11,416 bases of DNA from a virus (Duplodnaviria > Heunggongvirae > Uroviricota > Caudoviricetes), in IMG/VR virus record IMGVR_UViG_2541047168_000023, positions 1-11,416 of that record; one strand, 5' to 3'. Position 1 is the stretch's first letter, and the number at the start of each line of letters is the position of its first letter. The notes beneath the pieces were generated by a model. It made no database searches. It was not told the origin of the DNA and saw nothing but the letters and a program-made list of their open reading frames with translations. This document shows, in pieces, positions 1 to 11,416 of this stretch. Position numbers and translations under genes: made by a program.

Positions 1-174
1 CAACTCCGGGAGCCGTGATTATGGCATTCAGGCTCTGCTAAAAATGCCAGATAACATTCCGGCCTCCCCTGATTCAGGTTATAAATGACACAATATCTTG
101 ACAACACCCGTCACTGTCTGTCAGAAAATATACCGCCAGGCATAAGTATCATGTGAAATCCAACTATCCTTCTG

Positions 175-217
175 AGCCAGCACCTCTCCACCGAAAGTCA
201 GTGCTGGCTGTTTTTTT
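175..217 (+). terminator. Candidate intrinsic terminator: 9-bp stem, long loop, T-run
   Basis: AGCCAGCAC (175-183) pairs with GTGCTGGCT (201-209), followed by G + TTTTTTT (211-217). The 17-nt loop is longer than typical, which lowers confidence. No ORF of 60 aa or more lies upstream in the window. Confidence 0.3.
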
Positions 218-423
218 CCTTAATAAAGCATCTGTAACTGGTTGTTGTTCTGCGGGTTCTGTTCTTCGTTGACATGAGGTTGCCCCGTATTCAGTGTCGC
301 TGATTTGTATTGTCTGAAGTTGTTTTTACGTTAAGTTGATGCAGATCAATTAATACGATACCTGCGTCATAATTAATTATTTGACGTGGTTTGATGGCGT
401 AGATGCACGTTGTGACATGTAGA

Positions 424-438
424 TGATAATTATTATCA
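424..438. promoter_or_regulatory. Perfect 7-1-7 inverted repeat TGATAAT-T-ATTATCA (Fur-box-like)
   Basis: Read directly: TGATAAT (424-430), T (431), ATTATCA (432-438), inside an AT-rich stretch about 40 bp upstream of cosN. It matches the 7-1-7 description of Fur boxes (TGATAATnATTATCA); function is unknown. Confidence 0.3.
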
Positions 439-474
439 TTTTGCGGGTCCTTTCCGGCGATCCGACAGGTTACG

Positions 475-486
475 GGGCGGCGACCT
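475..486. other. cosN: cosN 12-nt cohesive-end sequence (lambda-type cos site)
   Basis: GGGCGGCGACCT at 475-486, preceded by CGACAGGTTACG and followed by CGCGGGTTTTCGCTATTTATGAAAATTTTCCGG. From recollection this matches the phage lambda cos junction (right end ...CAGGTTACG, left end GGGCGGCGACCTCGCGGG...). The small terminase gene starts about 185 bp downstream, as in lambda. Confidence 0.85.
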
Positions 487-520
487 CGCGGGTTTTCGCT
501 ATTTATGAAAATTTTCCGGG

Positions 521-632
521 ATCCATGTCCGGTTTCTCTTCAAGTTAACTATATGAAAAATATAAAAACAGGTCTTCTGTGAACCGGACATGAACAAAAA
601 ACAGACATGTAAACCGGACATGACCGGTTTTG
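521..632 (+). promoter_or_regulatory. cosB: Putative cosB: three copies of ATGTCCGGTT flanking an AT-rich IHF-like segment
   Basis: ATGTCCGGTT at 525-534 (+ orientation) and its reverse complement AACCGGACAT at 582-591 and 612-621. An AT-rich stretch (about 545-570, TATATGAAAAATATAAAAACAGG) lies between the first and second copies. This mirrors lambda cosB (R3, I1, R2, R1, with R3 inverted), but the repeat sequence differs from what I recall of the lambda R sites. Confidence 0.5.
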
Positions 633-669
633 TTGTGATTGTGAGGTGAGAGTTTTTGCGAGGTGAGGA

Positions 670-1179
670 GTGGCTACGCAGACTGAAGTTGCCAGGCATT
701 TAAGTCTGACCGATCGCCAGCTTCGCAGATTGCAGAAATTGCCGGGTGCCCCGATATCGAATAAGCGAGGGCAACTGGATCTGGATGCCTGGCGCGATTT
801 TTACATATCGTATCTGAGGAGAAGTAAAAACGATGTGCCTGATGGCGATAGCGAAGACGACTATGAGGAGAAATTGCTTATTGCCAGATGGGAACTGACA
901 GCAGAACAGGCTGTTACACAGCAGTTAAAAAATGAGGTGTCAAAAGGAAAACTGATTGACACCGGGTTCTGTATTTTTGCCCTCAGTAAGCTGGCAATGG
1001 CGTTATCCAGTACGCTTGATTCCATCCCTTTATCCATGCAGCGACAGTTTCCTGATTTAACACCGCGCCATCTTGACCATCTGAAAACCCTTATTGCTAA
1101 GGGGGCAAATCAGTGTGCGCGGGCAGGGGATAAATTACCGGATTTACTTGATGAATATATCAGAGCAACAACTGAATAA
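670..1179 (+). CDS. Nu1: Terminase small subunit (Nu1 family)
   Basis: 169-aa ORF from GTG 670, immediately after cos and overlapping the start of A. The C-terminal half resembles lambda Nu1 as I recall it (FCxFxLS..., PLSxQRxFP, LxEYI). The N-terminal region (TQTEVARHLSLTDRQLRRLQ) is HTH-like but unlike lambda Nu1. Confidence 0.85.
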   Translation: MATQTEVARHLSLTDRQLRRLQKLPGAPISNKRGQLDLDAWRDFYISYLRRSKNDVPDGDSEDDYEEKLLIARWELTAEQAVTQQLKNEVSKGKLIDTGFCIFALSKLAMALSSTLDSIPLSMQRQFPDLTPRHLDHLKTLIAKGANQCARAGDKLPDLLDEYIRATTE

Positions 1180-3080
1180 TATGATGAGCGCTGTCACAAC
1201 TGCATTACAGCCCCTGATAAGGGCATTGCCGGTGACGCCAGTTGAATGGGCTGATCAAAATTATTATCTGCCTAAAGAATCTTCATATGGTGAGGGCGAA
1301 TGGAAAACGCTGCCATTCCAGATCGCCATCATGAACAGTATGGGGAATGATCAGATCCGCACTGTTAATCTGATTAAATCTGCCCGTGTTGGCTATACAA
1401 AGATGTTGCTGGGGGGGGGGCGGGTATTTTATTGAGCATAAATCCCGAAACAGTCTGCTTTTTCAGCCCACGGATTCTGCCGCTGAAGATTTTATGAAGT
1501 CTCACGTGGAGGCGACGATTCGGAACGTGCCATGCCTGAAAGACCTTTCCCCATGGCTGGGTCGTAAACATCGTGACAATACTCTCACGCTGAAACGCTT
1601 TTCATCGGGCGTCGGTTTCTGGTGCCTGGGCGGCGCTGCCGCCAAAAACTACCGTGAAAAATCCGTTGACGTGGTCTGCTATGACGAACTTTCCTCGTTC
1701 GAGCCGGATGTCGAAAAAGAGGGCTCGCCAACCCTGCTGGGGGATAAGCGTATTGAGGGGTCGGTGTGGCCAAAATCCATTCGCGGCTCGACGCCTAAAA
1801 TCAAAGGCACCTGCCAGATCGAAAAAGCCGCTAACGAGTCGGCGCATTTTATGCGTTTTTATGTGCCCTGCCCGCACTGTGGGGAGGCGCAGTATCTGAA
1901 ATTTGGCGATGAGTCCACGCCTTTTGGGCTTAAATGGGAGAAGGACAGCCCTGAAAGTGTTTTCTACCTCTGTGAACATCATGGCTGCGTGATCCATCAG
2001 TCTGAACTGGACCAGAGCAACGGGCGGTGGATCTGTGAAAACACGGGCATGTGGACCCGTGACGGTCTGACGTTTTTCAGCGCCCGGGGTGATGAAATTC
2101 CGCCGCCGCGCTCCATCATGTTCCATATCTGGACGGCGTACAGTCCGTTCACCACCTGGGTACAGATTGTCTATGACTGGCTGGATGCACTGAAAGATCC
2201 CAACGGCCTGAAAACCTTTGTGAACACCACGCTGGGCGAGACCTGGGAAGAGGCCGTGGGCGAAAAACTCGATCACCAGGTACTGATGGATAAGGTGGTG
2301 CGTTACACGGCGGCGGTGCCTGCCCGGGTGGTTTATCTGACGGCGGGCATTGACTCGCAGCGAAACCGTTTTGAGATGTATGTCTGGGGATGGGCTCCGG
2401 GAGAGGAAGCCTTTCTGGTGGATAAAATCATCATTATGGGGCGTCCTGATGAGGAAGAGACGCTGTTACGTGTGGATGCGGCGATCAACAAAAAATACCG
2501 CCATGCGGATGGCACCGAAATGACTATTTCCCGTGTCTGCTGGGACACCGGGGGGATCGATGGTGAAATTGTTTATCAGAGATCAAAAAAACACGGTGTT
2601 TTCCGGGTGCTGCCGGTAAAAGGCGCATCTGTCTATGGCAAGCCGGTGATCACCATGCCAAAAACCCGCAATCAGCGGGGCGTGTATCTGTGTGAAGTGG
2701 GAACGGACACCGCAAAAGAAATTCTCTATGCCCGTATGAAAGCCGATCCCTCGCCTGCGGATGAAGCCACGTCGTATGCCATCCGTTTTCCTGATGATCC
2801 GGAGATTTTTTCGCAGACAGAGGCGCAGCAACTGGTGGCGGAAGAGCTGGTGGAGAAGTGGGAAAAAGGAAAGATGCGTCTGCTGTGGGATAACAAAAAG
2901 CGGCGTAACGAAGCGCTGGACTGCCTGGTGTATGCCTACGCGGCATTACGTGTGTCCGTGCAACGCTGGCAGCTTGATCTGGCTGTACTGGCAAAATCCC
3001 GGGAAGAAGAGACGACCCGGCCAACCCTGAAAGAACTGGCAGCGAAGCTGTCCGGAGGAGTGAATGGTTACAGTCGCTGA
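1151..3080 (+). pseudogene. A: Terminase large subunit (gpA homolog), frame interrupted at a G10 tract (real frameshift or homopolymer error)
   Basis: Two ORFs in different frames (1094-1435 and 1386-3080) together give a full-length gpA homolog. The likely start is ATG 1151 (MNISEQQL..., compare lambda MNISNSQV...). The frames switch at GGGGGGGGGG (1411-1420); removing one G gives ...GYTKMLLGGGGYFIEHK..., collinear with lambda ...GYSKMLLGVYAYFIEHK... Downstream motifs are conserved (KNYREKSVDV, FVNTTLGETWE, KRRNEALDC). Confidence 0.8.
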
Positions 3081-3270
3081 ACTGCAGGCGCTGCGTCAGG
3101 CGCGCCTTGATTTATTAACCGGTAAACGGGTGGTGTCTGTCCAGAAAGATGGTCGCAGAATTGAATATACGGCGGCTTCTCTGGATGAGCTTAACCGGGC
3201 GATCAATGATGCGGAGTCGGTACTGGGGACAACCCGGCGTCGCCGTCGTCCGCTGGGAGTGAGGTTATGA
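3064..3270 (+). CDS. W: Head-tail joining (head completion) protein gpW
   Basis: 68 aa, with LxxGKRVxxVQKDGRRxE[FY]TA and a C-terminal RRRR motif as in lambda gpW. The start overlaps the end of A and the stop overlaps the B start (ATGA at 3267-3270). Confidence 0.85.
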   Translation: MVTVAELQALRQARLDLLTGKRVVSVQKDGRRIEYTAASLDELNRAINDAESVLGTTRRRRRPLGVRL

Positions 3271-4859
3271 AACGAACGCCTGTCCTGATTGATGTGAACG
3301 GCGTTCCGCTTCGTGAGAGTCTCAGCTACAACGGGGGCGGTGCAGGATTTGGCGGGCAAATGGCGGAGTGGTTGCCACCGGCGCAGAGTGCCGATGCGGC
3401 CCTGCTGCCCGCGTTGCGTCTGGGGAATGCCCGGGCAGATGATCTGGTGCGCAATAACGGAATAGCGGCCAATGCGGTGGCACTGCATAAGGATCACATT
3501 GTCGGGCATATGTTTCTTATCAGCTACCGTCCGAACTGGCGCTGGCTGGGGATGCGGGAGACCGCAGCAAAAAGCTTTGTCGATGAGGTGGAGGCGGCCT
3601 GGTCGGAATACGCCGAAGGGATGTCTGGCGAGATCGACGTGGAAGGAAAACGCACGTTCACGGAATTTATCCGTGAAGGTGTGGGCGTTCATGCGTTTAA
3701 CGGCGAAATCTTTGTGCAGCCGGTCTGGGATACGGAAACCACGCAGTTATTCCGTACGCGTTTTAAAGCCGTGAGTCCGAAACGGGTGGACACGCCAGGA
3801 CACGGTATGGGGAACCGTTTTCTGCGGGCCGGGGTGGAGGTCGATCGATATGGCCGTGCCGTTGCGTACCATATCTGTGAGGATGATTTTCCTCGCTCCG
3901 GGAGTGGACGATGGGAACGGATCCCGCGTGAACTTCCCACCGGGCGTCCGGCCATGCTGCATATTTTCGAGCCGGTGGAGGACGGGCAGACCCGTGGGGC
4001 CAACCAGTTTTACAGCGTCATGGAACGGCTGAAGATGCTCGATTCCCTGCAGGCAACACAGCTTCAGTCGGCCATTGTGAAAGCCATGTATGCAGCGACG
4101 ATTGAAAGTGACCTTGATACCGAAAAGGCCTTTGAATATATCGCCGGTGCGCCGCAGGGGCAGAAGGATAATCCGCTTATTAATATTCTGGAGAAGTTCT
4201 CCAGCTGGTATGACACGAATAACGTGACGCTGGGTGGTGTCAAAATTCCGCACCTTTTCCCCGGGGATGATCTGAAACTACAGACTGCGCAGGATTCAGA
4301 CAATGGATTTTCGGCGCTTGAACAGGCGCTGCTGCGGTATATCGCCGCCGGTCTTGGCGTTTCCTACGAACAGTTGTCCCGTGATTACTCGAAGGTCAGT
4401 TATTCAAGTGCCAGGGCCTCTGCCAATGAGTCGTGGCGCTATTTTATGGGGCGGCGAAAATTTATTGCGGCCCGGCTGGCCACGCAGATGTTTTCCTACT
4501 GGCTGGAAGAGGCACTTCTTCGGGGGATTATCCGTCCGCCACGGGCGCGTTTTGATTTTTATCAGGCGCGATCAGCCTGGTCACGGGCAGAGTGGATTGG
4601 TGCCGGAAGAATGGCCATTGACGGGCTCAAGGAGGTTCAGGAATCGGTGATGCGCATTGAGGCCGGACTGAGCACGTATGAGAAAGAGCCGGCGCTGATG
4701 GGCGAGGATTATCAGGACATTTTCCGCCAGCAGGTCAGGGAATCTGCAGAGCGGCAAAAAGCCGGACTCTCACGTCCGGTGTGGATAGCGCAGGCGTATC
4801 AGCAGCAGATAGCGGAGAGTCGCAGGCCGGAAGAGGAGACAACACCCCGTGAGACGTAA
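3267..4859 (+). CDS. B: Portal protein gpB
   Basis: 530 aa with long stretches matching my recollection of lambda gpB (ARADDLVRNNG, FEPVEDGQTRGAN, LQSAIVKAMYAATIES, LRYIAAGLGVSYEQLSR, GRMAIDGLKEVQE). Position after W is as in lambda. Confidence 0.9.
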   Translation: MKRTPVLIDVNGVPLRESLSYNGGGAGFGGQMAEWLPPAQSADAALLPALRLGNARADDLVRNNGIAANAVALHKDHIVGHMFLISYRPNWRWLGMRETAAKSFVDEVEAAWSEYAEGMSGEIDVEGKRTFTEFIREGVGVHAFNGEIFVQPVWDTETTQLFRTRFKAVSPKRVDTPGHGMGNRFLRAGVEVDRYGRAVAYHICEDDFPRSGSGRWERIPRELPTGRPAMLHIFEPVEDGQTRGANQFYSVMERLKMLDSLQATQLQSAIVKAMYAATIESDLDTEKAFEYIAGAPQGQKDNPLINILEKFSSWYDTNNVTLGGVKIPHLFPGDDLKLQTAQDSDNGFSALEQALLRYIAAGLGVSYEQLSRDYSKVSYSSARASANESWRYFMGRRKFIAARLATQMFSYWLEEALLRGIIRPPRARFDFYQARSAWSRAEWIGAGRMAIDGLKEVQESVMRIEAGLSTYEKEPALMGEDYQDIFRQQVRESAERQKAGLSRPVWIAQAYQQQIAESRRPEEETTPRET

Positions 4860-6354
4860 TCTTTCACACATTATTGCCGCAGCATTCAATGAACCGCTGC
4901 TTCTGGAGCCCGCCTATGCGCGGGTTTTCTTTTGCGCGCTCGGGCGCGAGATGGGGGCAGCAAGTCTTTCGGTACCACAGCAGCAGGTACAGCTTGATGC
5001 TCCCGGAATGCTGGCTGAAACGGACGAGTACATGGCCGGAGGTAAACGACCGGCCCGTGTTTACCGGGTGGTGAACGGTATTGCTGTACTGCCGGTGACC
5101 GGCACGCTGGTGCACCGGCTGGGGGGTATGCGGCCATTTTCCGGAATGACAGGCTATGACGGCATTGTCGCCTGTCTTCAGCAGGCAATGGCGGATAGCC
5201 AGGTGCGGGGCGTACTGCTGGACATTGACAGTCCGGGCGGGCAGGCCGCCGGCGCGTTTGACTGCGCTGACATGATTTACCGCCTCCGTCAGCAGAAGCC
5301 GGTCTGGGCACTGTGCAATGACACGGCCTGTTCTGCAGCCATGCTGCTGGCGTCGGCCTGCTCCCGACGGCTGGTTACCCAGACATCCCGTATCGGCTCC
5401 ATTGGCGTGATGATGAGCCATGTCAGCTATGCCGGTCATCTGGCGCAGGCCGGTGTGGATATCACGCTGATTTACTCAGGGGCGCACAAGGTGGATGGCA
5501 ATCAGTTTGAAGCCTTACCGGCAGAGGTTCGCCAGAACATGCAGCAGCGCATTGATGCGGCGCGCCGGATGTTTGCCGAAAAAGTGGCCATGTTTACCGG
5601 TCTGTCTGTTGATGCCGTCACGGGAACAGAGGCCGCCGTTTTTGAAGGTCAGTCCGGCATTGATGCCGGGCTGGCGGATGAATTAGTCAATGCGTCGGAT
5701 GCCATCAGTGTGATGGCCACGGCGCTGAACAGTAATGTCAGAGGAGGCACTATGCCGCAATTAACTGCAACGGAAGCCGCCGCGCAGGAGAACCAGCGAG
5801 TGATGGGGATCCTGACATGCCAGGAAGCGAAAGGACGTGAACAGCTTGCCACGATGCTGGCAGGACAACAGGGCATGAGCGTTGAACAGGCCCGGGCGAT
5901 TCTGGCCGCGGCGGCACCGCAGCAGCCGGTGGCATCCACGCAGAGTGAAGCCGATCGCATTATGGCGTGTGAAGAAGCGAACGGTCGTGAACAACTGGCG
6001 GCAACGCTGGCGGCGATGCCGGAGATGACGGTGGAAAAAGCCCGCCCGATCCTGGCTGCTTCACCGCAGGCGGATGCCGGACCCTCACTCCGTGATCAGA
6101 TCATGGCACTGGATGAGGCAAAAGGGGCTGAGGCGCAGGCTGAACAGCTGGCTGCCTGCCCGGGAATGACTGTGGAGAGCGCCCGGGCTGTGCTGGCTGC
6201 GGGATCAGGTAAGGCAGAACCGGTCTCTGCATCCACAACCGCCCTGTTTGAACGCATCATGGCGAACCATTCACCGGCTGCGGTACAGGGTGGCGTGCCA
6301 CAGACGTCAGCAGACGGTGATGCGGACGTGAAAATGCTCATGGCCATGCCATGA
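4849..6354 (+). CDS. C: Prohead protease/scaffold gpC (S49/SppA-like peptidase domain), with an expanded repeat at the C terminus; a nested Nu3-like scaffold product is possible
   Basis: 501 aa, GTG start overlapping the end of B. The N-terminal two-thirds match lambda gpC as recalled (AFNEPLLLEPAYARVFFCAL, MTGY, GAFDCAD, KPVWAL, RRLVTQT, GSIGVMM, ITLIYSG.HKVDGN, IDAGLADELVN). The C-terminal third carries tandem repeats (separate repeat feature). Confidence 0.9.
   Translation: MRRNLSHIIAAAFNEPLLLEPAYARVFFCALGREMGAASLSVPQQQVQLDAPGMLAETDEYMAGGKRPARVYRVVNGIAVLPVTGTLVHRLGGMRPFSGMTGYDGIVACLQQAMADSQVRGVLLDIDSPGGQAAGAFDCADMIYRLRQQKPVWALCNDTACSAAMLLASACSRRLVTQTSRIGSIGVMMSHVSYAGHLAQAGVDITLIYSGAHKVDGNQFEALPAEVRQNMQQRIDAARRMFAEKVAMFTGLSVDAVTGTEAAVFEGQSGIDAGLADELVNASDAISVMATALNSNVRGGTMPQLTATEAAAQENQRVMGILTCQEAKGREQLATMLAGQQGMSVEQARAILAAAAPQQPVASTQSEADRIMACEEANGREQLAATLAAMPEMTVEKARPILAASPQADAGPSLRDQIMALDEAKGAEAQAEQLAACPGMTVESARAVLAAGSGKAEPVSASTTALFERIMANHSPAAVQGGVPQTSADGDADVKMLMAMP
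5797..6300 (+). repeat. In-frame tandem repeats (about 141-159 bp, 3 full copies plus 1 partial) in the C-terminal region of C
   Basis: Units begin at 5797 (RVMGILTCQEAKGREQLATMLAGQQGMSVEQARAILAAAAPQ), 5956 (RIMACEEANGREQLAATLAAMPEMTVEKARPILAASPQ) and 6097 (QIMALDEAKGAEAQAEQLAACPGMTVESARAVLAAGSG), with a partial copy at 6253 (RIMANH...). As I recall, lambda gpC has a single such unit (RIMGILNCEEAHGREEQARVLAETPGMTVKTARRILAAAPQ). Confidence 0.65.
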
Positions 6355-6390
6355 AGTCAGTGCTGACCATCAACAGGAGGTTTTTACAAT

Positions 6391-6738
6391 ATGGTAACGA
6401 AAAACATCACTGAACAGCGTGCGGAAGTACGTATTTTTGCCGGTAATGATCCGGCTCATACCGCCACAGGCAGCAGCGGGATTTCCTCGGCAACACCGGC
6501 ACTGACGCCCCTGATGCTGGATGAAGCCAGCGGGAAACTGGTGGTCTGGGACGGACAGAAAGCCGGTAGTGCAGTTGGCATACTGGTACTGCCGCTTGAA
6601 GGCACAGAGACGGTACTGACCTATTACAAGTCGGGGACCTTTGCGACGGAGGCAATCCGCTGGCCTGAAAGTGTGGATGAACACAAAAAGGCAAATGCCT
6701 TTGCCGGCAGTGCCCTGAGTCACGCGGCGCTGCCGTAA
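6391..6738 (+). CDS. D: Head decoration protein gpD
   Basis: 115 aa with RBS AGGAGG (6375-6380). It shares DPAHTAT, TPLMLD, KLVxWDG, AVGIL, YKSGTF and AFAG with lambda gpD as recalled. Confidence 0.9.
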   Translation: MVTKNITEQRAEVRIFAGNDPAHTATGSSGISSATPALTPLMLDEASGKLVVWDGQKAGSAVGILVLPLEGTETVLTYYKSGTFATEAIRWPESVDEHKKANAFAGSALSHAALP

Positions 6739-6795
6739 CACGTTATCAGGCCACCGCGGTGGCCTGACTGATTTCTGAATGAAAGGAACTGATTT

Positions 6796-7062
6796 ATGGG
6801 ATTGTTTACGACCCGCCAGTTACTCGGTTATACCGAACAAAAAGTGAAATTTCGTGCGCTGTTTCTGGAGCTGTTTTTCCGCCGTACGGTGAATTTCCAT
6901 ACCGAAGAGGTGATGCTGGACAAAATTACCGGAAAAACGCCGGTGGCGGCCTATGTCTCCCCGGTTGTTGAAGGAAAAGTGCTGCGTCATCGCGGTGGTG
7001 AAACCCGCGTGTTACGTCCGGGCTACGTCAAGCCGAAACACGAATTCCCCTGGAGCCGGTAA
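6796..7062 (+). pseudogene. E: Truncated major capsid protein gene (E'), N-terminal ~84 codons only
   Basis: MGLFTTRQLLGYTEQKVKFRALFLELFF...PGYVKPKHE tracks lambda gpE (MSMYTTAQLL...KFKFDPLFLRLFF...PGYVKPKHE) up to 7044. It then reads FPWSR and stops at 7060-7062. Lambda gpE is about 341 aa. Confidence 0.8.
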
Positions 7063-7784
7063 AAGGAGCCGGTACCACCCTGTGGGTTTATAACGGTCAG
7101 GGTGACGCCTATGCAAACCCGTTGTCAGACGATGACTGGCAGCGACTGGCTAAGGTGAAGGATCTGACGCCGGGCGAGATGACGGCAGAATCCTACGATG
7201 ATAACTACCTGGATGATGAAGACGCGGACTGGACCGCGACCGGGCAGGGGCAGAAATCTGCAGGTGATACCAGTTTTACGCTGGCCTGGAAACCGGGAGA
7301 GGAAGGCCAGAAAGGGCTTATAGGCTGGTTTGAAAGCGGCGATGTCCGGGCCTATAAAATCCGTTTTCCGAATGGCACGGTGGATGTGTTTCGTGGCTGG
7401 GTCAGCAGTATCGGTAAGGCCGTGACGGCGAAAGAAGTGATCACCCGCACGGTGAAAGTCACTAACGTGGGTAAACCTTCTGTAGCGGAAGAACGCAGCA
7501 AAATTACGCCGGTCAGTGCGATTAAGGTGACGCCGACATCCGGTACGGTGGCAAAAGGGAAAACAACCACCCTGACGGTTTCTTTTGAGCCGGAAAGTGC
7601 AACAGACAAGACGTTCAGAGCGGTTTCCGCCGATCCGTCGAAAGCCACCATTAGTGTGAAAGATATGACAATTACGGTAAACGGCGTGGCGACAGGTAAG
7701 GTGCAGATCCCTGTGGTGAGCGGAAATGGTCAGTTCGCCGCAGTGGCTGAAGTCACCGTTACTGAAGCGGGCGCTGCAGGGTAA
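7056..7784 (+). pseudogene. V: Major tail protein V lacking its first ~8 codons and native start (V')
   Basis: In the frame of ORF 7122-7784, the sequence from about 7056 reads [41 protein letters not shown]...[40 protein letters not shown]..., closely matching lambda gpV from about residue 9. This frame is closed by TGA at 6999-7001 and has no ATG/GTG before TTG 7122. Confidence 0.8.
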
Positions 7785-7797
7785 ACGGAGGTAATAC

Positions 7798-8220
7798 ATG
7801 TTTCTGAAAACAGAACAATTTGAATATAACGGTGTGTCCGTCACGCTTTCCGAATTGTCTGCGCTGCAGCGGTTTGATTATATAAAGTTTGTTTCAGACG
7901 CAGAACAACAGGAGACAACGAAGCATGATGTCGTGCACATTAACCAGCGATATCTGGAAACGGCATCCCTGCTTGTGGCGATGTCGCTATGGCATTCCCA
8001 TTCCCTCAAAGGCACTCTGGCCTCTCCGGAGACAGAGATGCAGCAGATCCGCCGTGAAGTGATGCTGGGATGGCCTGCTGATGCACTGAATCAGGCAACG
8101 AACCGGGTGCTTTATCTTTCAGGTATGCTGGATAACCGGCACGATGCCGATCCTGAACCAACCGGGAAAACAGAAGCGACTGAGCCGGTAACATCAAAAA
8201 AGCATTCGAAGGCGAGCTGA
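7798..8220 (+). CDS. G: Tail assembly chaperone gpG
   Basis: 140 aa, RBS GGAGG upstream. MFLKTEQFEYNGVSVTLSELSALQR...LLVAMSLWH... matches lambda gpG (MFLKTESFEHNGVTVTLSELSALQR...FLVAMSLWH...) as recalled. Confidence 0.9.
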   Translation: MFLKTEQFEYNGVSVTLSELSALQRFDYIKFVSDAEQQETTKHDVVHINQRYLETASLLVAMSLWHSHSLKGTLASPETEMQQIRREVMLGWPADALNQATNRVLYLSGMLDNRHDADPEPTGKTEATEPVTSKKHSKAS

Positions 8221-8555
8221 ACTTTGTCCTGAAACTGGCGCGTGAGATGGAGAGAGCCGACTGGCGCGCCATGCTTGCCGGGATGACATCCACCGAATAT
8301 GCCGACTGGCGACGTTTTTACTGCACGCATTATTTTCAGGATACCCAGCTGGATATGCATTTTTCCGGGCTGATGTACGCCGTACTCAGCCTGTTTTTTT
8401 GCGATCCGGATATGCATCCGGCGGATTTCAGCCTGTTCGCTCCGGAGGCAGAGGAAGGACAGGCGGAGACGCCGGACGAAAATGATGTACTGATGCAGAA
8501 GGCGGCGGGCCTCGCCGGTGGAGTCCGTTTCGGGGAGGAGGGAAGGAGGTTGTGA
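7798..8555 (+). CDS. T: Tail assembly protein G-T (fusion produced by a -1 frameshift near 8196-8202)
   Basis: The T-homologous ORF (8247-8555 in the track) has no RBS or independent context and sits in the -1 frame relative to G. It continues without a stop from the slippery site at about 8199. Confidence 0.75.
8196..8202 (+). promoter_or_regulatory. Programmed -1 ribosomal frameshift slippery heptamer A-AAA-AAG (G to G-T)
   Basis: In the G frame the codons are TCA AAA AAG, six codons before the G stop. The -1 frame from here is open to 8555 and encodes a gpT homolog (MERADWRAMLAGMTSTEYADW...DPDMHP...VLMQKAAGLAGGVRFG). The G/G-T arrangement is conserved in lambda-like tail modules. Confidence 0.7.
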
Positions 8556-8598
8556 CAGTTATTGATGGTATCAGAGGACATTTCAGGAGGTGACCACG

Positions 8599-11244
8599 AT
8601 GGCAGGTAATTTTGCCGATCTGACAGCCGTGCTGACACTGGATTCTGCCCGTTTTTCTGAAGAGGCAGCGCGGGTAAAAAAAGAGCTGGGTGAAACCAGT
8701 GCGCTTGCTGATTTGATGTCCGGGAAAGTCAGTCAGTCTTTCAGAAAACAGGCTGATGCTGCTGAGCAGAGTCTGAGCCGACAGGCGCTGGCTGCACAAA
8801 AAGCCGGGATATCAGTCGGACAGTATAAGGCTGCCATGCGCACACTGCCCGCACAGTTCACGGATATTGTCACTCAGCTTGCCGGTGGTCAGAATCCCTT
8901 CCTTATCATGCTGCAGCAGGGGGGGCAGATCAGCGATTCATTCGGTGGACCGCTCAGCCTGCTTACCCTGCTGAAGGAGGAACTTCTCGGGATCAGGGAT
9001 GCCTCTGAATCATCAGAGGAGTCGCTGTCAGATACGGCAAATGCACTGGCTGAAAATGCCCGGAATGCCGGTGAGCTGGGACGATTTATGTCGGTGGCCC
9101 GTGTGGCGGCAGGTGGCGGGGTTGCCGTACTGGCCGCGCTTGCTGCCGCCGCCTGGCAGGCAGAGCAGGCTGACCGGGCCTTATTGCGTTCACTGACCCT
9201 GACCGGAGGGGCTGCTGCCACCACAACGGCAGAATTGTGGAAAATGGCCGGGGTGATCAGCGATGAAGCCGGTGGTGGTATCAGACAGGCGGCAGAAAAT
9301 CTGGCCCGTCTGGCAGAAAGCGGGAAATATACCGCCGGGCAGCTACGGATCATGGGGGAAACCTCTCAGAGATGGCTGCAGACGGTGGGGGACGATGCCG
9401 GGAAGGTGGAAAAAGCCTTTGAAGGGATTGCAGCAGATCCGGTGAAGGCGCTGGCCTCCCTGAATCAGCAGTATAACTTCCTGAGCGTTTCCCAGTTACG
9501 CCATATTGATGAGCTTGAGCGCACGAAAGGTAAACAGGCTGCGGTGACGGAGGCGATGTCCCTGTTTGCGGATGTCATGAATGCACGTCTGGAGCAACTT
9601 GATAAAGCGGCCACGCCGGTGGAAAAAATCTGGGACGATGTTAAAACCTGGACTTCTGACGCATGGGCATGGATAGGTGATCATACACTGGGGGCACTCA
9701 GTCTGATCACTGACGTGGTGGCAGGAACCGTTGAACAGGTGAAGCTGCTGCTTGTGCAGGGGGATCTGGCGCTGGCTGAATTTATTCAGTCAGCCTGGGA
9801 AACGACAAAGAATGTGCCCGGCGTTGGTGCGTTGTTTGGTGAACTGGCAGAAGAGAACCGCGTATTTATTGAGAAAACAAAACGTGATGAACTGGCGCTG
9901 AGAAAATCCATTGCGGAACGGGATGCGCGTATACGCCAGGGGGAAATGGGGTACATCAACCGCTCGCGTGCAACAGGCGTCAGCAAAGGTCCGGGGCAGC
10001 AGGAAGCCGTCAGCCGTCTGGCTGAAGAGCTGACAGGTAAAAAGCATACATCACCGAAAACGCGCTCTGCCGGGGAGAGGGAAGAGGAGCAGGCAAGAGA
10101 GGCTCTGCTTGCCCTTGAAGCTGAGCTCAGGACGCTGGAAAAACACAGCGGTGCGAATGAGAAAATCAGCCGGCAGCGCCGTGATTTATGGAAAGCGGAA
10201 AGTCAGTATGCGGTCCTGAAAGAGGCTGCCACGAAACGACAGTTATCTGAGCAGGAAAAATCCCTGCTGGCGCATAAAGACGAGACGCTGGAGTACAAAC
10301 GCCAGCTGGCTGAGCTGGGCGACAAGGTTGAATACCAGAAACGCCTGAATGAGCTGGCACAGCAGGCGGTGCGGTTTGAAGAGCAGCAGAGCGCGAAGCA
10401 GGCCGCCATCAGCGCAAAAGCCCGCGGTCTCACTGACCGTCAGGCGCAGCGGGAGTCTGAAGCGCAGCGTCTTCGGGACGTGTACGGTGATAATCCGGCT
10501 GCGCTGGCGAAGGCCACATCGGCACTGAAGAACACCAGGTCTGCGGAGGAGCAGCTTCGTGGAAGCTGGATGGCCGGGCTGAAGTCCGGCTGGGGCGAGT
10601 GGGCGGAAAGTGCGACGGACAGTTTTTCGCAGGTTAAAAGTGCTGCCACGCAGACCTTTGACGGTATTGCACAGAATATGGCGGCGATGCTGACCGGTGC
10701 AGAGGCAGACTGGCGGGGATTCACCCGTTCGGTGCTGTCCATGATGACAGAAATCCTGCTTAAACAGGCCATGGTGGGCATTGTCGGGCGTATCGGCAGC
10801 GCCATTGGCGGTGCTTTCGGTGGTGGTGCATCTGCTTCCTCGGGGACGGCCATTCAGGCTGCGGCGGCGAACTTCCATTTCGCGACCGGAGGATTTACGG
10901 GGACGGGCGGCAAATATGAGCCTGCGGGGATAGTTCACCGCGGGGAGTTTGTTTTCACGAAAGAGGCAACCAGCCGGATAGGTGTGGGGAATCTTTACCG
11001 TCTGATGCGCGGCTATGCGGAAGGTGGTTATGTGGGTGGTGCCGGAAGTCCGGCGCAGATGCGGCGGACGGAAGGCATTAATTTTAATCAGAACAATCAC
11101 GTGGTGATTCAGAACGACGGCTCCAACGGACAGGCGGGGCCGCAGCTGATGAAGGCGGTGTATGACATGGCCCGCAAGGGGGCGCAGGATGAGATTCAGG
11201 CGCAGATGCGTGATGGCGGCGTCTTTTCCGGAGGCAGGCGATGA
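8599..11244 (+). CDS. H: Tail tape measure protein gpH
   Basis: About 880 aa. RBS AGGAGG (8585-8590) precedes ATG 8599, which I prefer over GTG 8590. Long stretches match lambda gpH as recalled (SLSRQALAAQKAGISVGQYKAAMR.LPAQFTD, LRTLEKH.GANEKIS.QRRDLWKAESQ.AVL.EAA, SVLSMMTEILLKQAMVGIVG, HFATGGFTGTGGKYEPAGIVHRGEFVFTKEATSRIGVGNLYRLMRGYA). Confidence 0.92.
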   Translation: MAGNFADLTAVLTLDSARFSEEAARVKKELGETSALADLMSGKVSQSFRKQADAAEQSLSRQALAAQKAGISVGQYKAAMRTLPAQFTDIVTQLAGGQNPFLIMLQQGGQISDSFGGPLSLLTLLKEELLGIRDASESSEESLSDTANALAENARNAGELGRFMSVARVAAGGGVAVLAALAAAAWQAEQADRALLRSLTLTGGAAATTTAELWKMAGVISDEAGGGIRQAAENLARLAESGKYTAGQLRIMGETSQRWLQTVGDDAGKVEKAFEGIAADPVKALASLNQQYNFLSVSQLRHIDELERTKGKQAAVTEAMSLFADVMNARLEQLDKAATPVEKIWDDVKTWTSDAWAWIGDHTLGALSLITDVVAGTVEQVKLLLVQGDLALAEFIQSAWETTKNVPGVGALFGELAEENRVFIEKTKRDELALRKSIAERDARIRQGEMGYINRSRATGVSKGPGQQEAVSRLAEELTGKKHTSPKTRSAGEREEEQAREALLALEAELRTLEKHSGANEKISRQRRDLWKAESQYAVLKEAATKRQLSEQEKSLLAHKDETLEYKRQLAELGDKVEYQKRLNELAQQAVRFEEQQSAKQAAISAKARGLTDRQAQRESEAQRLRDVYGDNPAALAKATSALKNTRSAEEQLRGSWMAGLKSGWGEWAESATDSFSQVKSAATQTFDGIAQNMAAMLTGAEADWRGFTRSVLSMMTEILLKQAMVGIVGRIGSAIGGAFGGGASASSGTAIQAAAANFHFATGGFTGTGGKYEPAGIVHRGEFVFTKEATSRIGVGNLYRLMRGYAEGGYVGGAGSPAQMRRTEGINFNQNNHVVIQNDGSNGQAGPQLMKAVYDMARKGAQDEIQAQMRDGGVFSGGRR

Positions 11245-11416
11245 AAACCTTTCGCTGGAAAGTGAAGCCGGATATGGAGGTGAACTCGCAGCCATCGGTG
11301 CGTGAAGTGCGTTTTGGTGACGGGTATTCGCAGCGTATGGCGGCGGGGCTGAATGCTGACCTGAAAACATACCGTGTGACGCTTTCCGTGACCCGGGAGG
11401 AGGCCCGACATCTGGA
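11241..11416 (+). CDS. M: Minor tail protein gpM (5' part; runs off the window end)
   Basis: ATG 11241 overlaps the H stop (ATGA). Translation MKTFRWKVKPDMEVNSQPSVREVRFGDGYSQRMAAGLNADLKTYRVTLSV... matches lambda gpM (MKTFRWKVKP...VRFGDGYSQR...LKTY.VTLSV) as recalled. It is absent from the ORF track only because no stop falls inside the window. Confidence 0.85.
   Translation, partial: MKTFRWKVKPDMEVNSQPSVREVRFGDGYSQRMAAGLNADLKTYRVTLSVTREEARHL

Follow-up and report, generated by a model that had tools for sequence, protein, structure and literature searches.

The stretch of DNA analyzed here, which we call the window, is 11,416 nucleotides long, and from its sequence matches we assign it to the late (morphogenesis) region of a defective lambda-like prophage of the Sp4/CP-933M type from Escherichia coli O157:H7. 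Genes were called by an ORF scan combined with Pfam searches, and together they form a lambda-type late operon on the plus strand, with the following features.

670-1179, plus strand: nu1, uninterrupted (ORF scan)
split at about 1411, plus strand: terminase large subunit A, frameshifted
1411-1420, plus strand: G10 homopolymer in A, which shifts the frame (poly-G comparison)
3064-3270, plus strand: W (ORF scan and Pfam)
3267-4859, plus strand: portal protein B, intact; a 530-aa ORF annotated as 'phage portal protein' in identical genomes
4849-6354, plus strand: head protease/scaffold C, intact (Pfam Peptidase_S49, E = 2.8e-35; annotated as an S49 family peptidase)
6391-6738, plus strand: head decoration protein D, intact, upstream of the deletion (Pfam HDPD, E = 4.2e-24; PGAP annotation)
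6796-7062, plus strand: E', a remnant of the major capsid gene with codons 1-84 of 342, then PWSR and TAA (Pfam and alignments)
7037-7046, plus strand: junction with imperfect microhomology (ungapped comparison with the undeleted prophages L004 and L009)
7047-7784, plus strand: remnant of the major tail tube gene V, with codons 6-250 and the stop codon (Pfam and alignments)
7798-8555, plus strand: tail assembly chaperones G and G-T, with G at 7798-8220 (Pfam Phage_TAC_2, E = 1.4e-34)
8590-11244, plus strand: tape measure protein H, intact; an 884-aa ORF of the type found in an nleA-carrying prophage, not of the Sp4 type

The order of these genes is that of lambda, nu1-A-W-B-C(nu3)-D-E-FI-FII-Z-U-V-G-T-H, minus the 3' part of E together with FI, FII, Z, and U. 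Lambda (NC_001416) shares both the gene order and the protein families with the window and is itself complete; its tail genes are 76-79% identical, and divergence keeps its head genes from matching at the nucleotide (megablast) level. An earlier note on this DNA had listed B, C, D, G, G-T, and H as intact, and the ORFs, the Pfam matches, and the annotation bear this out; terminase A, which stood outside that list, is frameshifted in the window. Three-frame translation places a -1 slippery heptamer, A AAA AAG, at 8196-8202, with the T frame open to 8555. The corresponding G/G-T slippery site of lambda, G GGA AAG, is unlike the one in the window.

The ORF at 6796-7062 encodes 88 amino acids. It matches the Pfam family Phage_cap_E (PF03864) over profile positions 1-80 of 329 (E = 1.5e-14), far short of the full length, and 83 of its first 84 residues are the same as in E of L004, an intact sibling; the alignment to lambda gpE covers residues 1-83. 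After Phe84, four junction-derived codons unrelated to E (P-W-S-R) lead to a TAA stop codon at 7060-7062. This is the structure the earlier note had described, an E homolog of about 84 codons followed by unrelated sequence, except that five unrelated codons had been counted instead of four, because lambda has valine rather than phenylalanine at residue 84. PGAP labels the ORF 'major capsid protein, incomplete, missing C-terminus'. Judged by these matches, E' is a gene fragment and not a functional member of the Phage_cap_E family.

The sequence beyond the junction belongs to the tail-tube gene V. Read in the frame that continues from 7047, it contains both V domains at full length, Phage_TTP_12 (PF16461; positions 1-135 of 135, E = 2.1e-69) and Big_2 (positions 2-79 of 79). 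Against sibling V, the alignment of the remnant starts at residue 6 and runs to the stop codon; that to lambda gpV likewise begins at residue 6. That gpV continues here in a frame other than that of E had been recognized from the sequence; its start had been put at about residue 9, equivalent to some eight lost codons, and this is revised to residue 6, with five codons lost. Relative to E', V is shifted into the -1 frame. The V frame is open from 7002, following a stop codon at 6999-7001, and overlaps the E' frame as far as the E' stop at 7060-7062. The remnant has no Shine-Dalgarno sequence, ATG, or codons 1-5 of its own; sibling V begins with GAGGA-N6-ATG, and both of these signals lie inside the deleted interval.

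Undeleted relatives, which span about 2.5 kb more, were found when the window was compared by megablast with complete E. coli genomes, and two of them were used for comparison, the prophages of O111:H8 strain 08-4347 (L004) and of strain UTME-3 (L009). Both siblings share 97-98% DNA identity with the window on either side of the junction and have the same nu1-A-W-B-C-D-E and V-G-T-H modules, but they keep a 2.52-kb interval that holds the 3' end of E, FI, FII, Z, U, and the start of V. A complete E (342 aa) lies between D and V in both, along with FI, FII, U, and a tail protein of the Z type. In an ungapped DNA comparison with L004 and L009, the window follows E to 7046 and V from 7037. The bases at 7042 and 7045 are E-specific and that at 7047 is V-specific, so that 7045 is the last E-only base, T 7046 is shared, and 7047 is the first V-only base, which places the join at 7046/7047. 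Over positions 7037-7046, the E copy (AACACGAATT) and the V copy of the intact siblings (AACACCAAAT) form an imperfect microhomology of 8/10. The deletion amounts to 2521 bp relative to L004 or 2522 bp relative to L009, and it took away E codons 85-342, the whole of FI, FII, Z, and U, and, from V, the ATG and codons 1-5 as well as the ribosome-binding site.

These comparisons answer several points raised in the earlier note. It had confined the junction to 7045-7055, had explained the missing remainder of E and the absence of FI, FII, Z, and U by an internal deletion, and had suggested both a search for microhomology and a comparison with undeleted prophages. The join at 7046/7047 falls within that interval, both intact siblings map it to this same position and account for the missing genes, and an imperfect 10-mer is indeed found there. 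The size, given as roughly 3 kb, was too large in view of the measured 2521-2522 bp.

Because the background frequency of matches of 8/10 or better at a fixed register is only 5.6e-4 in sibling sequence, microhomology-mediated illegitimate recombination would be the likeliest mechanism for the deletion. The alternative of an end-join independent of microhomology may also apply, T 7046 being the sole strictly shared base at the join. Another route would be an IS-adjacent event or site-specific recombination. Sp4 does carry IS629/IS1203, with ISEc8 in addition in many strains, and its inverted lysis block lies beside an IS. The sequences flanking 7046/7047, however, run directly into E and V, with no IS sequence or IS end at or near the join, and the nearest IS elements are located upstream of nu1. 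Deletion mediated by an IS is rejected given the lack of IS sequence at the junction, and we regard this route as a whole as extremely improbable.

The identical junction is present in 300 of 5426 complete E. coli genomes, among them Sakai, where it falls within the 'prophage Sp4' feature, and EDL933, and also in nine IMG/VR contigs. Every serotyped genome among the junction matches listed is O157:H7. An exact 35-mer scan of the GTDB species representatives, in which the E. coli representative is probably not O157:H7, did not find the junction. In all genomes fetched, the prophage that bears the junction sits at serT-hya, the attachment site itself being absent from the window, and the serT site is empty in O55:H7 strain CB9615. 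The junction is fixed in the serT prophage of the O157:H7 lineage.

This distribution also bears on whether the junction could be an assembly collapse or a mis-join between repeated prophage sequences. O157:H7 genomes are rich in lambdoid prophages that are nearly identical to one another, draft contigs here stop inside V (window 7439-7704), and the window switches from Sp4-type to other prophage sequence near 7640-7840, all of which would suit such an artifact. Against it, E and V share no long repeat able to cause a collapse, only the 10-mer described above, and the exact junction recurs at 100% identity in independently assembled complete genomes and in the IMG/VR contigs. Because 300 complete genomes share the identical junction, we conclude that it is not a misassembly, and we put the chance of an artifact as close to nil.

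Across most of its length, the window is almost the same as previously sequenced Sp4 elements. Positions 1-7871 differ at two positions from the O157:H7-lineage strain 350 (99.975% identity), and positions 925-7871 differ from Sakai Sp4 by three mismatches and one indel (99.94% identity). The E' ORF at 6796-7062 is identical to Sakai ECs_1110, annotated as 'phage head protein'. In the Sakai record, the region is labeled 'prophage Sp4, lambda-like phage' and adjoins serT and the hya operon, and the prophage carries sodC, tccP2, and espV; these surroundings recur in other genomes that were compared. Sakai Sp4 (CP-933M type, ECs_1110/ECs_1111) has the same E' ORF, junction, gene order, and head and major-tail defects as the window. 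It differs in having ISEc8 in nu1, G9 in A, and its own G-T-H, whereas the window has no ISEc8, G10, and the G-T-H of another prophage from about 7640 onward.

Sp4 has been studied by Asadulghani et al. (2009; PMC2669165), whose Table 1 scores its portal, minor tail, host specificity, and lysis functions as conserved (+) and its head, major tail, and DNA packaging functions as defective (D). Treatment with mitomycin C led to excision of Sp4, its amplification occurred solely via regional replication driven by Sp5, and Sp4 DNA was present in DNase-resistant particles, that is, it was packaged despite its defects; no transfer to K-12 was detected (PMC2669165). The authors concluded that co-resident prophages had complemented the head and packaging defects of Sp4 and that packaging was most likely carried out by the Sp14 terminase (PMC2669165). 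Sp6, Sp9, Sp12, Sp14, and Sp15 are morphogenesis-defective like Sp4, yet they too were excised or packaged with co-resident help (PMC2669165). Their lesions are IS insertions, frameshifts, and other deletions, whereas the E-V join is specific to Sp4. The statement in the earlier note that heads cannot form without a major capsid protein agrees with both the sequence and this study. Published work already covers the Sp4 element with its head and major-tail defects, and the E-V lesion is a rediscovery; our addition to the records is limited to the base-level breakpoint (7046/7047, 8/10 microhomology, 2521-2522 bp).

The similarity to Sp4 does not extend through the tail genes. Positions 7037-7636 are identical to Sp4 and show 29 differing sites relative to L010, the nleA-carrying prophage of strain TR01, which we take to be Sp9/CP-933P. 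From about 7640 to 11416, comprising the 3' end of V, G, T, and H, there are instead three mismatches relative to L010, and the switch lies between 7636 and 7837. Between about 7840 and 10190, the window differs from Sp4 at 43-136 sites per bin of about 200 bp in all but one bin; in the H region (about 8407-10019), the same bins hold 0-2 mismatches versus L010 and 43-136 versus Sp4. The G, T, and H genes of the window are thus not those of Sp4. Among the complete E. coli genomes searched, there is no single uninterrupted match at >99% that covers the entire window, and a chimera of the Sp4/Sp9 type is unrepresented there. The switch may be a real gene conversion between prophages or a repeat-induced mis-join, the latter being considered as well because draft contigs end at 7439-7704. 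A shorter patch of the L010-like kind is seen in strain F8092B.

Two further differences between strains lie in A and nu1. The G10 tract at 1411-1420 is also present in TR01, F8092B, and strain 350, in all three of which PGAP notes the terminase gene as 'frameshifted'. Sakai and three IMG/VR draft genomes have G9, with A in frame, and the intact siblings read GGGGGTGGT at the poly-G position. Either genuine slippage or a sequencing error in the homopolymer could have produced the G10 in terminase A. The state of nu1 is a strain-level variant as well: the gene is free of ISEc8 in the window and in strains 350, DEC4E, and F6321, and it is split by ISEc8 at window position ~925-932 in Sakai, TR01, and F8092B, so that the window does not have the Sakai form. 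Because nu1 is uninterrupted in some carriers of the junction, the ISEc8 insertion is younger than the E-V deletion.

Next to nu1, and mostly just upstream of the window, the lysis block of Sp4 is inverted relative to the siblings. The inverted segment occupies window positions 1-240 and the sequence upstream (L005 11777-15271) and comprises a YlcI/YnfO remnant, PerC/pchA through Rz, and the endolysin; the annotated holin is on the minus strand, likewise inverted. IS629/IS1203 bounds the far side of the block, and homology to the siblings resumes at window position 240, on the nu1 side. A late promoter would read the Sp4 lysis genes antisense, yet lysis was scored as conserved (PMC2669165).

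The annotation of the V remnant is inconsistent, with two annotated starts and a third from the ORF scan. PGAP places the start at a non-canonical ATT codon at 7044 (WP_029208397.1, 246 aa, no pseudogene flag), so that RefSeq treats the gene as intact; the Sakai annotation uses a GTG at 7155 (ECs_1111, 209 aa); and the mechanical ORF scan selects a TTG at 7122. The V frame contains no ATG, GTG, or TTG between the stop codon at 6999-7001 and TTG 7122, and none of the three candidate starts is preceded by a convincing Shine-Dalgarno sequence. Programmed -1 frameshifting that would fuse E' to V was also considered and was rejected, as codon-by-codon reading of 7002-7062 found no X XXY YYZ heptamer. 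With neither a convincing start and Shine-Dalgarno sequence nor a slippery heptamer in the overlap, the V remnant is probably not expressed.

A different outcome can be imagined, in which the V remnant might be translated at a low level by reinitiation at ATT 7044 or CTG 7050 after the E' stop codon. Sp4 would then donate tail-tube subunits, along with G, G-T, and H, to hybrid particles of the O157 prophage pool, and recurrent gene conversion of the kind seen at about 7640 would keep the ORFs open. We consider this scenario unlikely. A stronger version holds that the arrangement is selectively retained, V being expressed through the strong translation signals of E, either by -1 frameshifting or by reinitiation of ribosomes that terminate at the E' stop, and supplying tail-tube protein together with G, G-T, and H for use by the prophage pool or in a particle made of a tail only. 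Several features would be compatible with such a role: E' keeps its own Shine-Dalgarno sequence, the V frame is -1 relative to E' and open across the overlap as far as the E' stop, the V ORF lacks nothing else, contains its two Pfam domains at full length, and is called as a protein by PGAP, and G, G-T, and H are intact. The overlap at 7002-7062 nevertheless has no slippery heptamer, the only near-cognate in-frame starts beside the E' stop are ATT 7044 and CTG 7050, both lacking a Shine-Dalgarno sequence, and the deletion of the tail terminator U and of Z leaves the element's own tail pathway incomplete. The major tail was, moreover, scored as defective (PMC2669165), and a lineage this clonal (2-3 SNPs over 7-8 kb) gives no power to test for selection. 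On balance, selective retention of the arrangement seems very improbable.

We are highly confident in the overall account of Sp4 as a defective O157:H7 prophage that underwent a single E-V deletion event. One illegitimate recombination, probably microhomology-mediated, joined E codon 84 to V codon 6 in an exchange that involved AACACGAATT from E and AACACCAAAT from the 5' end of V, with the removal of about 2.52 kb. The major capsid protein can no longer be made, FI, FII, Z, and U are gone, and V is left with neither ribosome-binding site nor start codon and out of frame with E'. That the neighboring ORFs are still open would reflect an event that is evolutionarily recent, together with the exchange of sequence among resident lambdoid prophages. 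Its recency is suggested by the low divergence among strains, which differ at only 2-3 positions per ~7-8 kb. The earlier note had proposed either recent decay or retention of the tail genes. The first part is consistent with this low divergence and with the exchange among prophages, but the second is not supported, since the deletion took U and Z and left V start-less; a combination of recent decay and sequence exchange among resident prophages fits better than tail-gene retention.

Taken together, the loss of the capsid gene, the loss of FI, FII, Z, and U, and the start-less V mean that Sp4 is unable to build its own heads or tails, an inability for which the E-V lesion accounts. For the serT prophage of O157:H7, the E-V breakpoint could act as a marker of lineage, and the lesion fits the published view that the defective lambdoid prophages of O157:H7 form a pool whose members complement one another and recombine.
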